Origin: a virus
Reading direction: 5' to 3' (one strand)
Virus record (IMG/VR): IMGVR_UViG_3300022752_000025
Span: 68,274 to 132,273 of that record
Length of the DNA: 64,000 bases
Shown here: positions 5,222 to 29,337 of the stretch, piece after piece
Layout: each line of letters starts with the position of its first letter
Position numbering within the stretch: position 1 is the stretch's first letter
The notes under the pieces: generated by a model
What the model saw: only the letters and a program-made list of their open reading frames with translations
The model's database searches: none
What the model was told of the DNA's origin: nothing
Translations under genes and position numbers: made by a program

Positions 5222-5309
5222 TGGAACGAGTAGGATTCGAACCTACGGATGATATTAAACCATCGGAAGTTTAGTAAACTTCTGCTTTAGACCACTCAGC
5301 CATCGTTCC
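5222..5309 (-). tRNA. tRNA-Ser with unusual ACT anticodon (long variable arm)
   Basis: GGAACGA/TCGTTCC acceptor stem, GCTGAGTGGTCTAAAGC D-arm, GAAGT-TTACTAA-ACTTC anticodon arm, long variable arm, GTAGG-TTCGAAT-CCTAC T-arm. Confidence 0.85.
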
Positions 5310-5318
5310 AAAATAACT

Positions 5319-5393
5319 TCGGGGTAGCAGGATTTGAACCTGCGACCTTCTGCTCCCAAAGCAGACGCACTAGCCAAGCTGTGCTACACCCCG
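5319..5393 (-). tRNA. tRNA-Pro(TGG)
   Basis: CGGGGTG acceptor, TCTGC-TTTGGGA-GCAGA anticodon arm, GCAGG-TTCAAAT-CCTGC T-arm. Confidence 0.95.
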
Positions 5394-5397
5394 AATT

Positions 5398-5469
5398 CTC
5401 CCAAACTAGGACTTGAACCTAGAACGGCCTCGTTAACAGCGAGGTGCTCTACCTTTGAGCTATTTGGGA
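5398..5469 (-). tRNA. tRNA-Asn(GTT)
   Basis: TCCCAAA/TTTGGGA acceptor, CCTCG-CTGTTAA-CGAGG anticodon arm, CTAGG-TTCAAGT-CCTAG T-arm. Confidence 0.95.
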
Positions 5470-13211: not shown

Positions 13212-15983
13212 TTACACTCTTGGGATATTTCCTGTATTTTGAACTAAATTATATTTAATAGAAATATCCTCTTTAGAATCATCGCTTGTTTTAAATGATA
13301 TTAAACCTGTGCAAATTGGGACATTATATTCTTTAAATTTATTTAAATTTTGAGGTGAATATGGACTAATTTTATTTATTTTATTTCCTGCATAGGCTGA
13401 ATATTTGTCTCCATAATATAAATTATCTGGTATATGAGCCGCAGAGATCTTGAATGTTTTAACGCTTGCCGATGTATATCCTGTAATTTCAAAAGTTTCT
13501 GGATTTACTAATACTCCACTTTTTAAAGTTTCACTAATAGCCGAACCTAGATATGGATTTCTTCCAGAGCCGTATATATTATTTCCTGTATAAAAATAAA
13601 ATCCAGTATATGAAATTGGTAAAAGTAAATCATAAGTTTTATCTGTTTCTAAATATAATTCTGGATATCTTTGATTTTGGAATCTATAGTAAACTTTTGC
13701 TCCACTTCTTTCTTGTGGAATATCAAATTGGCTAAAAACTTTAGTTCTTAATACTAAATTTAAACTTTGTTCTCTTAAATTATCTCCACTGATCATCATT
13801 TTGCCTGTGATTGAATTTGGCGAAACGGAAAAATATTCTATACTTGGATCAATATTATTTTCCTTCACACTAAATTGAATTAATCTATAATTCCCGTTGA
13901 TTTTATTATAATTTGGTTCAATAACTTTTAATCCACTTACATCACCTTTAATAGCTAAAGGCCTATGATGCGATAAGTTTGTTTGCAAGAAATTATATTT
14001 AAGGCCTTTTTTTAATATTATTTCATCTAATTTTTTATATTTATTTGAAACTGTATCGTAGAATCTATATCCAGATCCACTTAAAAAGTTAACTGAAACA
14101 TATTCTTGCTTTGAGTCTTCTGTGTTAAAAGTTGGTAAATTATTTCTTTGTAATTTAAAAAGTAAATCTAATTGTACTGCTCCAGTTATTGGATTAAAAT
14201 TATTTTTCTGATAAACAAGTTGACCATTTTGATTTTTAAATAAACCAGAATAACCTTCTCTATATTTAAAATATTGTCTCTCAGTATTTAAATTTGAAAC
14301 ATAGGTATCTGGTTCTACATTAACAGTAATGTTTGCTTGACCTTGATAAGAAGGTAATGCTTTAGTTTTTGATGCAAATTTTGCTTTTAATGTAGAAGTT
14401 TCTGAAATTATATTTAAACCTGTTGCATAAGCTGTAAGCCCAAATACTGGACTAGATGTAGGTAGATTACCATTATTATCATATTTTAACAATGATCCTT
14501 CTAAATTATACTCTAGATTATCTCCAGTGCCTTGAATTACGCCTAATTGATTTTCTCTAAAAGATGAAAAATAGTAATCATCAAAAAATATTTTAGTATT
14601 ATTTCCCAAAGCCTTTGTAGAAGCTGAAATTAATTTAGATTTTACTAAAAAGCTTAATTTACCATCTTCTAGCATTGTGCCTGTAACTTCATTTAAAATT
14701 AAACCGCCAGTATTTGTATAGATTTTTGTTCCATTAGCTAAAGTAGAGGAATGAGTTCCAGTCTTTAGATAATTAATTCTAAAATTAATATCCACGCTAC
14801 TATTTTTACCTATTGTATAATATTTTACAAGTTGGCCAGATAAAGGATGATTATTTGGATAAACAAATTGAGTTATTTTAAATTTATCATCAATTACTTC
14901 AAGATTTGAAGAAGCAGAAGAGATATAAAAATTCTTTGGTAAATCTCCAGTATTAAATACAGAAAATGAATAAACTTCTCTATCGTTTAAAGTGCCAGAT
15001 TGATTTATAGTATAATTATTATTATATAACTTGTATAATCCAGTATTATTTGGTTGAAAATATGGTCCATATCCTAAATCAAAAGAATTTGGAGAAGTTC
15101 CTGTTGGAATCCAGGAAACAGTTCCGCTAAATACAAATATTCTACGAATTGTTTCGTCTGATGATTTAACTTTTATAGGATCATCATATTGTAAATTTCT
15201 TTCGCCCCTCATTTCTGTATAAACAAAAGAACATCTATTCGTTACACACCATTCAATATTTGGAATATTATCTTGAAAATATATTTTATTATAAGAAATT
15301 AATTGCCCAGTTTTTGTGCCAGAGATAATACCGCTAGTTTGTGCGTCCGCATAGTATTCTGATAATCCAAAATTTAATAATTCTTTTTTCGTCCAATAAT
15401 TTCTTCCTACGCTTCCTAATTGATATCCACTATGATCAACTAATTCGAAAATATTTTTATATGGAGATATAAATGGTGCCCATGGAAGATCATTTCTAAC
15501 GAATCCGCAAATTTTAAATCTTTGGCCAGAGGAAATTCCTTCTGGATATCCAAAACCATCTTCTTTTCCATAAGGAAATCCTGCGTCAGGTTCAAAATTA
15601 GCTCTTATAGTCCTATCCAAGCAATAAGCTTGACCATTTACTGTAGTATATGGATCTTTATCTAAAGGATAATATGTCTTGGCAAATTTAATTTTTAATC
15701 CAGATGCTCTATAAGTTTTTAACCATCCAGATTCATACCATAATGAATTATAATTATCTTTTCTGTAAGTTTTTAAATCATTTAAATAATTTTGATTATC
15801 TCTTTTAGATATTTCGCTACCTAAAATTACTTTAGAATTGTTTAACAAATCTTTAAATTTTGGTGTTAAATATTCTTTATCTGCATATTCATAATAAGTA
15901 TTATTAATAGCAGATGCTAAATCTAAGTCTTTAGCTTTTGTTTGACCGCTAAATCCTTTTCTATATCCAGTAATTTTATTCAT
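13212..15983 (-). CDS. large (923 aa) putative virion structural protein
   Basis: Long beta-rich ORF with recurrent SG/TG dipeptides; ATG lies 8 nt after the predicted splice site of the upstream ribozyme. Confidence 0.7.
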   Translation of the reverse strand: MNKITGYRKGFSGQTKAKDLDLASAINNTYYEYADKEYLTPKFKDLLNNSKVILGSEISKRDNQNYLNDLKTYRKDNYNSLWYESGWLKTYRASGLKIKFAKTYYPLDKDPYTTVNGQAYCLDRTIRANFEPDAGFPYGKEDGFGYPEGISSGQRFKICGFVRNDLPWAPFISPYKNIFELVDHSGYQLGSVGRNYWTKKELLNFGLSEYYADAQTSGIISGTKTGQLISYNKIYFQDNIPNIEWCVTNRCSFVYTEMRGERNLQYDDPIKVKSSDETIRRIFVFSGTVSWIPTGTSPNSFDLGYGPYFQPNNTGLYKLYNNNYTINQSGTLNDREVYSFSVFNTGDLPKNFYISSASSNLEVIDDKFKITQFVYPNNHPLSGQLVKYYTIGKNSSVDINFRINYLKTGTHSSTLANGTKIYTNTGGLILNEVTGTMLEDGKLSFLVKSKLISASTKALGNNTKIFFDDYYFSSFRENQLGVIQGTGDNLEYNLEGSLLKYDNNGNLPTSSPVFGLTAYATGLNIISETSTLKAKFASKTKALPSYQGQANITVNVEPDTYVSNLNTERQYFKYREGYSGLFKNQNGQLVYQKNNFNPITGAVQLDLLFKLQRNNLPTFNTEDSKQEYVSVNFLSGSGYRFYDTVSNKYKKLDEIILKKGLKYNFLQTNLSHHRPLAIKGDVSGLKVIEPNYNKINGNYRLIQFSVKENNIDPSIEYFSVSPNSITGKMMISGDNLREQSLNLVLRTKVFSQFDIPQERSGAKVYYRFQNQRYPELYLETDKTYDLLLPISYTGFYFYTGNNIYGSGRNPYLGSAISETLKSGVLVNPETFEITGYTSASVKTFKISAAHIPDNLYYGDKYSAYAGNKINKISPYSPQNLNKFKEYNVPICTGLISFKTSDDSKEDISIKYNLVQNTGNIPRV

Positions 15984-15990
15984 GATTTTT

Positions 15991-16115
15991 AGGCCTAGCT
16001 TTGTCTAGACTTCTTGTTGCTCTTTTTTGCCTCATTTCTGAACCCTGATGTTCTCAATGAAAAAGCCGGTTATCTAGATGTTAAAACCTTTCTGGTGGTT
16101 TCTTCTTGCTCTTCT
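15991..16115 (-). ncRNA. predicted 125-nt exon released as circular RNA by permuted group I splicing
   Basis: Lies between the intron terminal G (16116) and GCCU|AAAAAUCAU (15991), which pairs with the IGS; folds as a long hairpin; inference. Confidence 0.55.
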
Positions 16116-16349
16116 CATGTATGTTATTTTTCATTTTTTAAAATGAAAACTCGATGTCTCCATCGAGATCGGACTATATCTTGCTTACTGACTTTCGTTA
16201 GTAAGACTGGGTGCTCGTGTCTCTGTTATTGTTACGGTAACTCAAGAGTTAGTCTCTACACCTTCATGCTTCGTTTTTACCGTGAAGCAGGCTTGGCTCG
16301 GTATAATCCACTTGGGACTTCCACCGAATTCACCCAGTATGCCCATCAT
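16116..16349 (-). ncRNA. group I intron ribozyme core (P3-P9, with P7.1 insertion), free-standing and apparently circularly permuted
   Basis: P3 ACTGGGTG(16338-31)/CACCCAGT(16213-06); P GAATTCGGTGGAA; Q ATACCGAGCCAAG; R GAAGGTGTAGAGACTA; S AAGATATAGTCC(16182-71); P8 with GAAA loop; P9 CTCGATG-GAGA-CATCGAG; ends AATAACATACATG. Confidence 0.9.
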
Positions 16350-16354
16350 CTTTT

Positions 16355-16376
16355 AAAGAACTATAACCTATTACAC
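16355..16376 (-). promoter_or_regulatory. GTGTAA phage promoter motif followed by boxA-like AGTTCTTT
   Basis: GTGTAA-N8-AGTTCTTT, identical in spacing to the tmRNA leader (28859-28880). Confidence 0.6.
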
Positions 16377-16401
16377 TAAATAATATAATGTGAAATTATT
16401 T

Positions 16402-17394
16402 TTATATTTTTTCTTTATCACCAGAAAACATTATTTGTAGTTCTTCTTTTATGGAGTTATTTATTTCTGATTTTATGAAAGATTTCATTTCGTCTAACTC
16501 ATCAAATGAATAAAGAATATTATCTTGATATAGCCTATATAGATTTATTTTTTCAAGAATATCACACTTATTAAAAATTAACTTATTGACCCCAGAAATT
16601 CTAATTGCACGAATTAATTTTGTTAAATTCAACCAATTAACTAATCTTTTTCTACCAGTTGTAGAACCAAACTCCTGCCCAATATCAATAATCATATTCA
16701 ATTCTGGATCATTCCAGAGATATTCTGGAAATAATGGATCTACTCCACTTTTTGTATCGTAAATTTTTGCAACGCCAATTATATCTCTAATTTTTTTTGG
16801 AGAAAAACCTAAAGAGCAAGCAGAGTATGGAAGAGTTTCGCTACTAGTAACATAAGGATAATTTCCATAATTTATATCTAACCAAAAGCTTTGAGCTCCT
16901 TCACAAAGGATTTTGCCATAAAGATTTCCATCCCAAATATATTTTTTATCAATATAATCTTTTGCTAATTTTCCAGTTCTTAGCATTTTATCTGCATAAG
17001 CTGGGGCGATACCTTGTCCAGTGGTCCCAAGCTTTGGCTTTAAAAATTTAAGATCATATTGAATATGTCTTTCTGTGATGATATTTGCGTTTGAACTTAC
17101 TTTAATTAAAGAAGTATCAAATCCATTTTTTTCAAGGTATTCTATTTCGTCAAAAAATTTATCTACATTAATAACGCAATTTGGTCCAATAACACTAATT
17201 TTATTTTGAAATATACCGCATGGTATTATATGCGTTTTATATTTTTTATTATTTAAATAAATAGTGTGCCCAGCATTTGGCCCGCCATTCCAACGACAGA
17301 CCATATCGTAATCTTTAGATATAGTATTAGTAATTTTACCTTTTCCTTCATCTCCCCAACATAATCCAAAAATAATATCAACTAGTTTTATCAT
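16402..17394 (-). CDS. purA: adenylosuccinate synthetase (short form)
   Basis: WGDEGKGK, GGPNAGHT, GTTGQGIAPAY, EGAQ, YPYVTSS, GSTTGRKR, NKCD. Confidence 0.95.
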   Translation of the reverse strand: MIKLVDIIFGLCWGDEGKGKITNTISKDYDMVCRWNGGPNAGHTIYLNNKKYKTHIIPCGIFQNKISVIGPNCVINVDKFFDEIEYLEKNGFDTSLIKVSSNANIITERHIQYDLKFLKPKLGTTGQGIAPAYADKMLRTGKLAKDYIDKKYIWDGNLYGKILCEGAQSFWLDINYGNYPYVTSSETLPYSACSLGFSPKKIRDIIGVAKIYDTKSGVDPLFPEYLWNDPELNMIIDIGQEFGSTTGRKRLVNWLNLTKLIRAIRISGVNKLIFNKCDILEKINLYRLYQDNILYSFDELDEMKSFIKSEINNSIKEELQIMFSGDKEKI

Positions 17395-17629
17395 TATTAT
17401 TTGATTTTAATTCATTTAAATAATTTTCTAAATTTTCTTTAGCTTTTGTACAATAATCTTGTCCTGATTTGCCACAACAATTTTTAAATTTTGTTAAAGT
17501 GAGTGGACACCAAGTATTCCTAGGGACTTTATTTAAAACTCTAACTATTGGAGAAAATGGGGTAGCTCTGGCGTAAGGATTATCTGGTAGTTTTATATTT
17601 TTTACATTCTCGTTTACATTTTCATTCAT
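17378..17629 (-). CDS. SEC-C-like motif protein
   Basis: KVPRNTWCP...KFKNCCG. Confidence 0.6.
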   Translation of the reverse strand: MNENVNENVKNIKLPDNPYARATPFSPIVRVLNKVPRNTWCPLTLTKFKNCCGKSGQDYCTKAKENLENYLNELKSNNNDKTS

Positions 17630-17630
17630 A

Positions 17631-18017
17631 TTATCGGGTGCTTTCGAGTTTTGGCCTTAGTCTTTGGAAAGCCGCATTAACCTCGGCAACATTTTCAATT
17701 TTATTAGCATCCATAATAAGAAATGCTTTTTGTCCAAGTCTAAAATTTTCATCAGTTTTCGCGGATACAACAGCTTGAATTCTTGATCTCATTTGAGATT
17801 CGTTTTTTAATGAAAGATTTCTTTTTTGTTCTTGAAGAAGCTCTATATATTTTTTATTTGATTCAATTTGAGATTTTGCCAAATGATATTCCGCTCCTCT
17901 CGTAACATCATCATATTTTTGATATGTTGATTGACCTTTGCTGCTGCTAATAGCTATTAATAATGCAATTATTGCAATTGCTAGATATTTTATATTATTA
18001 TAATTTTCCATGTGCAA
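17631..18017 (-). CDS. exported coiled-coil hypothetical protein
   Basis: N-terminal hydrophobic segment, helical remainder. Confidence 0.6.
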   Translation of the reverse strand: MHMENYNNIKYLAIAIIALLIAISSSKGQSTYQKYDDVTRGAEYHLAKSQIESNKKYIELLQEQKRNLSLKNESQMRSRIQAVVSAKTDENFRLGQKAFLIMDANKIENVAEVNAAFQRLRPKLESTR

Positions 18018-19101
18018 ATCCTTCGTACAAGTTGTTTGCTGTAACTTTTACAGCTTTTATTTTATTTGTCCAAATGCCTCCGCGCATTTCTTCTATTGAT
18101 CTAAATCCCAAATAACTCATTGCACTTCTTAAGCCATTGGCAAAATCATATACAATGTCTTCTATGGATTTATTTTCAATCAAGGGAATTAACGTGGCAT
18201 CTCCTTCTACAAATAAATTCTTTTTTGTACCATCATATAAATCATAATCTTCTACGACATCTTTGCTTGCCATTCCTCTATATTTTGCATATCTTTTACC
18301 GTCTTTTTCTATTATATTTTCTTCATCTACGGAATCTGCAAGTCCAGCAAATATTCTTCCACATATTACGGCATCCGCACCACTCGCGATAGCTTTAACT
18401 AAATCTTTAGGATATCTAATCCCTCCATCTGCTAAAATACTTGGACGATTTTCTTCTTTTGGATTTTCGTGTCTAAAATAATCTAGATTTGCTAACTGAA
18501 AATTTCTAACTGCTTTCCAAGCATAATATAAACCTGTGACACTTGGACATCCTATTCCAGTTTTTATTTGGGTCAAACACATTGATCCAGGTCCAATAAG
18601 ATGCCTAAAACCATCTGATTTTAAATTAGCTAATCTATAAACACTTTCTTTTGTTAAAGTATTTCCAACGATTATATCTTGTTTATAGGATGATTGTTTA
18701 TACCATATAAGAAAGTCTTCGACATTTTGAGATAAACCATTAGCAGTATCTAAAAAGAATATATCCGTATATTCCGAAATCATTTCAATTCTTTCTTTAA
18801 AGTCTTTAAGACCTATTGCATTTATGCAAAAATTACTTTCGTCTTTTATGTGCTTAGCTTTTTTAGCTTGATCGTCTGGAGACATAAATCTATGTAAAAC
18901 TCCTGCACCACCAACTCTATTAATCTTTATACAAGATTTAACAGATGAAACTGTATCCATCGGAGAAAGTATAATTGGTATATCTATATATTTTGATTTG
19001 CTAATTTTTGTTATTGTATTAACTTCTTTTCTAGAAATAATATCTGAAAAATTTGGAAGTAAGGAGATATCATCGTATCCTAAAGCTTCTATAAATTCCA
19101 T
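17998..19101 (-). CDS. IMP dehydrogenase/GMP reductase family protein (no CBS domains)
   Basis: SPMDTV, IGPGSMCLT (catalytic Cys), ADGGIRYPKDLVKA, YRGMAS, VEG, GLRSAMSYLG. Confidence 0.9.
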   Translation of the reverse strand: MEFIEALGYDDISLLPNFSDIISRKEVNTITKISKSKYIDIPIILSPMDTVSSVKSCIKINRVGGAGVLHRFMSPDDQAKKAKHIKDESNFCINAIGLKDFKERIEMISEYTDIFFLDTANGLSQNVEDFLIWYKQSSYKQDIIVGNTLTKESVYRLANLKSDGFRHLIGPGSMCLTQIKTGIGCPSVTGLYYAWKAVRNFQLANLDYFRHENPKEENRPSILADGGIRYPKDLVKAIASGADAVICGRIFAGLADSVDEENIIEKDGKRYAKYRGMASKDVVEDYDLYDGTKKNLFVEGDATLIPLIENKSIEDIVYDFANGLRSAMSYLGFRSIEEMRGGIWTNKIKAVKVTANNLYEGFAHGKL

Positions 19102-28857: not shown

Positions 28858-28886
28858 TGTGTAAATATTAAAAGTTCTTTCTAATT

Positions 28887-29274
28887 GGGCGCGTACTGGT
28901 TTCGATTTTAGGAATCGAAATTAAAATGCAAGTAGAGGTTTAGGTGGGTCTCTTTAAAAAACCTTAAAAGTATTAACTGCCAAAACAGCTAAATACAAAG
29001 GTCATATCTCTGCTAGAGTTTCTCTAGTTGAGGAGACCGCTTCTGTAGCCTAAGTTCTACAGCGTGATTACCATGACACATCTAATGGATAATTGCGTAT
29101 TTAGATGTCTTTATTTATAAAGTTTTTTTATTCTTTATAAGTTTAGTATTCAAAATAAAATCGCCAATTATATTTGTTTTTCTTGTATAAAAGGTTAAAA
29201 ATAAGAAAAACTAAACTTGTAGTATTTTAATTTAAATTCTCTAAAAGACGAGAGTTCGAATCTCTCCGCGTCCA
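28887..29274 (+). ncRNA. ssrA: tmRNA
   Basis: GGGCGCG/CGCGTCC acceptor stem with G3-U70, GGTTTCGA, T-arm GAGAG-TTCGAAT-CTCTC; tag ORF 28979-29053 after TAACT: AKTAKYKGHISARVSLVEETASVA*. Confidence 0.93.
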
Positions 29275-29337
29275 AGGCAAAAAAAATAATCAATTTATAA
29301 AATTTTAGTGTAATAAAAAAATAAGAGGTAATATAAT

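Follow-up and report, generated by a model that had tools for sequence, protein, structure and literature searches.

A probable 'ribozyme-first' permuted group I element between purA and a large gene of a virus

Group I ribozymes are textbook introns. We describe here a group I ribozyme that interrupts no gene, found in a 64,000-nucleotide (nt) stretch of viral DNA that spans positions 68,274 to 132,273 of IMG/VR record IMGVR_UViG_3300022752_000025 and is referred to below, at its full length, as the window. The ribozyme is encoded on the minus strand between purA and a gene for a protein of 923 amino acids (aa). A first-pass annotation of this DNA had proposed that its splice sites stand in permuted order, 3' site, exon, 5' site, and this order is both present here and kept in relatives. 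We consider it likely that the locus holds a natural 'ribozyme-first' permuted group I element. Comparison of related sequences supports the view that the permuted order is kept under selection, because guide and target covary, the 3' element is conserved, and the stem between the two spacer ends shows compensatory changes.

The locus and its ribozyme core

On the RNA the predicted order, read from sequence and covariation, is a short leader, the guide, the core (to 16150), hairpin P9.1, G16116, a folded spacer of 125 nt, GCCU and the AUG of the 923-aa gene. All positions were confirmed by reading the minus strand base for base, and the features of the locus are as follows:

16402-17394, minus: purA, 330 aa (Pfam PF00709, adenylosuccinate synthetase, E 3.1e-79)
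16371-16376, minus: GTGTAA promoter-like motif, a recurring phage word
16341-16345, minus: internal guide sequence U-GGGC, 3' strand of P1, from base-by-base reading and pairing in alignment A5
16338-16331 with 16213-16206, minus: P3, eight Watson-Crick pairs
16327-16261, minus: P4-P6
16259-16250, minus: R element, GTAGAGACTA, from base-by-base reading
16254-16250 with 16176-16172, minus: P7
16249-16214, minus: P7.1/7.2 insert
16205-16184, minus: P8
16182-16171, minus: S element, AAGATATAGTCC, from base-by-base reading
16167-16150, minus: P9, with a GAGA loop
16149-16128, minus: P9.1 hairpin
16116-16149, minus: P9.1 and 3' splice-site element AUAACAUACAUG with terminal G 16116, assigned by homology
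15991-16115, minus: spacer ('exon'), the predicted circular product, 125 nt, with consensus folds
15994-15991, minus: P1 5' strand GCCU, predicted cut between U15991 and A15990, from reading and covariation
15984-15990, minus: A-rich leader of 7 nt left on the mRNA after the predicted cut
13212-15983, minus: 923-aa gene from the open reading frame (ORF) list, product without assigned family

An intact group I core occupies window positions 16150-16338 (minus), with helices P3-P9, the guanosine site in P7, and R and S elements at the positions given by the first-pass annotation, which had already called the core complete. When the region 15800-16600 was scanned against all 4227 Rfam families, RF00028 matched at 16150-16460 (minus), scoring 69.0 bits where the gathering threshold is 50 (E 2.5e-17). 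It was the only family better than E 1, the lariat-capping (GIR1) family giving no match, and none of the six matches with E of 10 or less was to a riboswitch aptamer family; the RNA ahead of the guide is only ~18 nt long. A scan of the whole window at gathering thresholds returned only a transfer-messenger RNA (tmRNA) and three transfer RNAs (tRNAs), missing the ribozyme, so that of the two scans the regional one alone found the core; neither matched a group II (RF00029-type) family. A genome-wide search of the same virus record gave the core an identical RF00028 score. The G+C content is 44-48% across 16150-16349, compared to 19-33% immediately upstream.

The helices were assessed in a MAFFT alignment of nine sequences (A5) that was not fitted to any structure; this alignment alone was counted, because two others made with MAFFT (A3 and A4) misplace the site in several rows. 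Across the whole model 91.8% of cells pair, compared to 33-42% with slid partners, and compensatory changes occur in 23 of the 66 model pairs. Within the core helices 86-100% of cells are paired, again with compensatory changes.

A second permuted-type ribozyme (L002) lies outside the window, at C1:21798-22062 of the same genome (minus strand), and scores 66.6 bits, above the Rfam cut-off. Its guide is GGCC, its spacer measures 138 nt, and its site, GGCU, stands 6 nt before the ATG of a paralogue that is 25% identical to the 923-aa gene. The presence of a second genomic copy before a paralogue of the same gene was counted in favour of a permuted element.

Guide, target and the absence of an interrupted gene

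The guide GGGC (16344-16341) ends 2 nt before P3 and is preceded by AUGAU (16349-16345). Its predicted partner, GCCU, lies behind the core, 7 nt ahead of the AUG of the 923-aa gene (15983-15981), and is followed by AAAA and then by AUCAU (15986-15982), which overlaps that AUG. P1 would thus consist of the G16344.U15991 wobble and three G-C pairs, its substrate strand being placed 3' of the core and not 5', and A15990 can pair with U16345 in addition. In A5, columns 20-25 pair with columns 424-429 in the following combinations: U-A in nine sequences; G.U in eight and G-C in one; G-C in nine; C-G in six, U-A in two and G-C in one; and C-G in nine.

With the addition of pattern scans of viral contigs the comparison covered at least 234 loci, which hold at least 89 different ribozymes with the same P3-P4...P6 words. 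Thirty-three 'permuted-type' relatives were recognised by a G-initial guide 9-10 nt before a GGGTG anchor, no P2 hairpin between the two, and an A+T-rich or promoter-like flank; the other 56 ribozymes among the matches listed include typical introns with P1 and P2 hairpins upstream. The 33 use eight guide types (GGCC, GGGC, GGTC, GCCC, GCCT, GACC, GTCC and GCGT). The cognate word, exactly complementary to the guide, with U as its last base and [AGT]A next to it, occurs downstream in 28 of the 33, compared to 165 of 780 non-cognate pairings. It falls within 60 nt before an automatically called start codon in 23/33 as against 122/780 (Fisher p 2.4e-11, a value that ignores relatedness among the 33), and the ten misses comprise four wrong start calls (L100, L111, L166, L202) and loci with an intervening promoter or terminator. 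The length of a four-pair P1 is not in itself significant; it is the covariation of P1 in relatives that takes it beyond chance. The pairing of guide with downstream GCCU, with U.G at the cut, had been proposed from this one sequence, and both the positions and the expected covariation in related phages are borne out.

The same comparison bears on whether this is an ordinary cis-splicing intron whose upstream 5' exon, for instance the end of purA, has been overlooked. The Rfam alignment does put P1 and P2 of the model at 16460-16400, within the last part of purA, but by eye this segment aligns with flagged non-standard pairs and sets a C opposite the model's wobble position, and we regard the placement as an alignment artefact. 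Cognate words are not enriched in the 100 nt upstream of the guide (2/31, compared to 92/735 non-cognate pairings), in keeping with the earlier statement that no convincing P1 exists there.

The neighbouring genes point the same way. Relatives of purA were found in 127 viral stretches, from which 80 loci were kept; the match spans residues ~1-330 in all 80, so that purA is complete and uninterrupted and a purA split by an intron can be rejected. A ribozyme adjoins purA in only seven of these loci (five different contigs), and since purA ends at the same residue in 80/80 whether or not one is there, its end is unaffected by the ribozyme. An nhmmer search returned ten ribozyme matches in 83 loci, the two loci of this genome included. 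By tblastn, relatives of the 923-aa protein turned up in 10 of the 83, nine of which, the paralogue in this genome among them, have the ribozyme directly upstream; the tenth, L010, has the gene and no core. Relatives differ in the gene upstream and agree in the family of the gene downstream, and the element travels with the downstream gene and not with the upstream one. The 923-aa protein has no match in Pfam, PHROGs, the protein Atlas or, by tblastn, GenBank phages, and the GenBank phage collection contains no DNA match to 15900-16480.

In all 30 permuted-type relatives with at least 400 nt upstream, no reading frame stays open beyond a point 15 nt before the GGGTG anchor inside P3 and none enters the core, and in the window the 923-aa ORF begins after the predicted cut site. 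No host gene is interrupted here that exon ligation would restore, as had been read from the window sequence at first pass. Taken with the upstream counts, these observations make an overlooked 5' exon extremely improbable.

Little space is left for such an exon upstream in any case, because a promoter-like motif stands directly before the guide. It has the form GTGTAA-N8-AGTTCTTT, with AGTTCTTT at 16362-16355 and the guide beginning about 18 nt after GTGTAA, and would place the transcript start near 16362. The full form occurs three times in the 132-kb genome, at both ribozymes and 7 nt before the tmRNA gene (28887-29275, plus strand, Rfam 107.5 bits; window 28859-29275 with the promoter word included). 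The genome has 52 GTGTAA words, and 17 of them are followed after 6-15 nt by the ATG of an ORF that encodes 60 aa or more, which suggests that they are a phage promoter yielding many leaderless or near-leaderless mRNAs. In six relatives (L042, L081, L097, L098, L106, L116) the motif lies 8-12 nt before the guide. The promoter named in the first-pass annotation does not match a sigma-70 consensus at this position and is better described as this recurring phage motif.

Two further observations concern this leader. The word at window 16362-16351 recurs inside the P5 loop in another subgroup (L042/L107, L081, L103, L106, L116); no partner was found for the P5-loop word, and its placement suggests a role at the RNA level, such as a protein site or a tertiary contact. 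Different inverted repeats of 5-7 base pairs flank AGTTCTTTAAAA just upstream of the guide in L002, L003/L037, L044 and L064; in a transcript they would make a hairpin whose loop is conserved, but the start near 16362 would exclude its 5' arm. In L225 the stop codon of an upstream ORF abuts the guide, and there the ribozyme is probably co-transcribed with the upstream gene.

3' splice site, spacer and predicted reaction

After P9.1, an AUAAC-like word, 2-9 nt and then UG were found by regular expression in 27 of the 33 permuted-type relatives (two of the picks, L098 and L166, were later replaced by hand), and most of the others carry a recognisable variant of this 3' element. In five conventional relatives in which one gene is interrupted (L124, L134, L139, L167, L179), homologous coding resumes, by eye, directly after the same element. 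This exon boundary and the conserved element support, by homology, G16116 as the predicted terminal G, previously offered as a best reading. G16116 lies 125 nt 5' of the GCCU/A site on the minus strand, an order that relatives share, and the limits of the 125-nt segment, 16115-15991, agree with those first proposed.

A consensus fold of the spacer from the four closest relatives has compensatory changes in 14 of its 24 predicted pairs, including the stem that joins both ends, and in the paralogue group 11 of 30 pairs show such changes. The fold of the single sequence is unexceptional (z -1.2). Pairing of the spacer ends is, by analogy, the geometry that engineers build with pairing arms. The shortest spacers are a single hairpin: L159, L172 and L225 are miniature forms without P9.1 in which the spacer is one hairpin of 18-20 nt, and the hairpins of L159 and L172 differ by compensatory changes. 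Two other identities for the spacer were discarded. A permuted tRNA or tmRNA is contradicted by ARAGORN, which with circular topology found no genes in 32 spacers, and a coding circle would depend on an Arg-rich ORF of 28 codons spanning the junction, which we treat as chance because 36 of 200 shuffles have one as long or longer and 18 of 32 relatives have none.

In the reaction that we propose, transcription from the GTGTAA-type promoter, starting near 16362, would give an RNA whose guide makes P1 with the target behind the core. From its binding site in P7, a free guanosine nucleotide would then attack after U15991, releasing the mRNA of the 923-aa gene with an added G and the 7-nt leader, a product resembling the near-leaderless messages apparently made directly from GTGTAA promoters. 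In the second step the new 3'-OH of U15991 would attack after G16116, closing 16115-15991 as a 125-nt circle and freeing a ribozyme of ~247 nt. Both steps are those that we infer from group I chemistry, and back-splicing probably closes the circle. Selection may act on any of three products: the shortened mRNA, the circle, or the ribozyme set free. The predicted site lies 2-11 nt before the ATG in 15 of the 23 relatives with a match, and leaders of that length fit a role in exposing the start codon.

These short leaders, together with the apparent preference of the phage for near-leaderless messages, also suit a ribozyme that merely processes leaders, in which the first step is selected for a defined short mRNA 5' end and the second is slow, absent or a by-product. 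The spacers, which are not conserved between subfamilies and shrink to 18-20 nt, can be read in the same way, and the authors of the work on permuted group II ribozymes argue in the same sense that circles with little conservation are probably not the active product (PMC8637638). Yet relatives conserve the 3' splice-site element together with its terminal G, neither of which the first step needs, and the spacer ends pair beside both splice sites. Moreover, there is no mRNA left to mature where a terminator-like hairpin, seen by eye and followed by a U-run, comes after the P1 site (L044, L231), or where by eye a separate GTGTAA promoter drives the gene (L044, L097, L098, L106); such loci indicate that the module can stand alone. 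On this evidence we judge leader processing alone to be unlikely, and prefer the permuted element with both splice sites probably in use.

Several observations weigh against the permuted-element interpretation. P1 is short, at 4-5 pairs, and does not appear in the minimum-energy fold, and L044 has a C at the position of the wobble U. There is no conserved P10: a P10-like pairing of GAAGAGC with GUUCUUU, noted at first pass, is present here and by eye amounts to ~5 pairs in L003, L037 and L044, but is absent in L002, L042, L081 and L064, and most relatives lack it. Spacer lengths run from 18 to 145 nt and the spacers are dissimilar between subfamilies, and the circle may on that account be a by-product. 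The 33 permuted-type relatives were chosen by eye from the 89 unique ribozymes among the matches listed, L188 and L225 being doubtful members. Support comes from sequence and covariation; the contigs of one freshwater metatranscriptome (X1), which contained 0.07 of the sampled words, cover none of 15308-16721, and no joints were listed from it. P9 followed by UUUUCAUUUU (window 16167-16141, minus) scores as intrinsic-terminator-like, and if it terminates some transcripts, those would be without spacer and target. Finally, at least one relative does without the ribozyme: in L010 (4985-5190) purA is followed by a homologue of the 923-aa gene but the catalytic core has been lost.

L010 has the appearance of a derivative from which the core was deleted. 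Still present are the promoter word, a GGCCC resembling a guide, a strongly folded leader similar to a spacer (z -4.9), a GGGCCU word and, ahead of the ATG, the word TATAAATA; against Rfam this leader gave only a chance-level match. The loss of the core with the gene kept, like the missing wobble U of L044, is what would be expected if the element were an inactive relic of a former intron, retained by chance. We think this very unlikely, given the compensatory changes in P1, core and spacer across many phages and the two copies above the Rfam cut-off in this genome.

Known systems and significance

The closest layout is man-made. An engineered ribozyme-first design has the same order of guide, ribozyme, terminal G, insert and NNNNNU target, and in it P1 alone suffices for circularisation in vitro, the addition of P10 lowering the yield; it differs in belonging to another group I subclass and in that its RNA stops at the target, with no gene to follow (PMC10457212). 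Permuted intron-exon (PIE) constructs made from the Anabaena and T4 td introns are described in the same source as likewise having reversed splice sites around a circularised 'exon', but they split the intron inside a loop so that each half carries part of the core (PMC10457212). In the phage element the core is undivided and lies entirely 5', and the one part relocated is the 5' strand of P1.

Our full-text literature search brought up no permuted group I ribozyme that occurs naturally in phages or bacteria, which agrees with the view taken at first pass that no well-characterised equivalent is known from phages. A natural case does exist in corallimorpharian mitochondria, where the ND5-717 group I intron is reported to back-splice from a permuted precursor, with the circular exon RNA detected (PMC6545197). 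The phage element is consequently not the first natural group I case overall. ND5-717 is permuted through transcription round the circular mitochondrial genome, is broken in P8 and restores a protein-coding gene; unlike the element here, it is neither a phage element nor built around a non-coding spacer (PMC6545197). Natural circularly permuted group II ribozymes interrupt no gene and make small, poorly conserved circles of 15-86 nt, but they are of another ribozyme class, use branching chemistry and occur on bacterial chromosomes and plasmids (PMC8637638).

Nearer in sequence are conventional phage introns of the same subfamily (L121, L124, L139), which have the P3-P4 and P6 words, R and S, and the P9/P9.1/AUAAC...G end in common with the permuted type. 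They carry P1 and P2 hairpins upstream of P3, and coding resumes after the terminal G, whereas the phage element lacks P2 and has its P1 partner downstream. Other group I-derived ribozymes stand ahead of an ORF and shape the mRNA 5' end or ribosome access. The lariat-capping ribozyme GIR1 makes a 3-nt lariat, has a junction and lariat fold of its own and no P1, while the element here has a P1 with G.U. A leader of Clostridioides difficile contains a group I ribozyme that depends on cyclic di-GMP through a riboswitch aptamer, with splice sites in the ordinary order.

Uncultured aquatic phages may carry a whole family of ribozyme-first group I elements that back-splice in infected cells, each reaction yielding a small folded circle, a ribozyme free to act in trans, and the mRNA of a large late gene with a guanosine tag and hardly any leader; this has in our estimation an even chance of being correct. 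If so, these would be the first group I ribozymes of viruses to make circles in nature, and late-gene translation could be coupled to ribozyme folding and to the supply of guanosine nucleotides. The layout is otherwise known mainly from engineered RNAs, and a natural class with its own promoter, reversed splice sites and no interrupted gene would show that evolution reached the permuted design of engineers. It would also add a viral source of small circular RNAs and a ribozyme-based route to short-leader mRNAs, and such compact scaffolds, P2-less and P10-independent, would be candidates for circular RNA production.

Elsewhere in the window, purine-nucleotide genes adjoin one another at 16402-19101 (minus), purA being accompanied by a gene for an IMP dehydrogenase/GMP reductase-domain protein (17998-19101, PF00478, E 1.4e-67), and three tRNA genes lie at 5222-5469.

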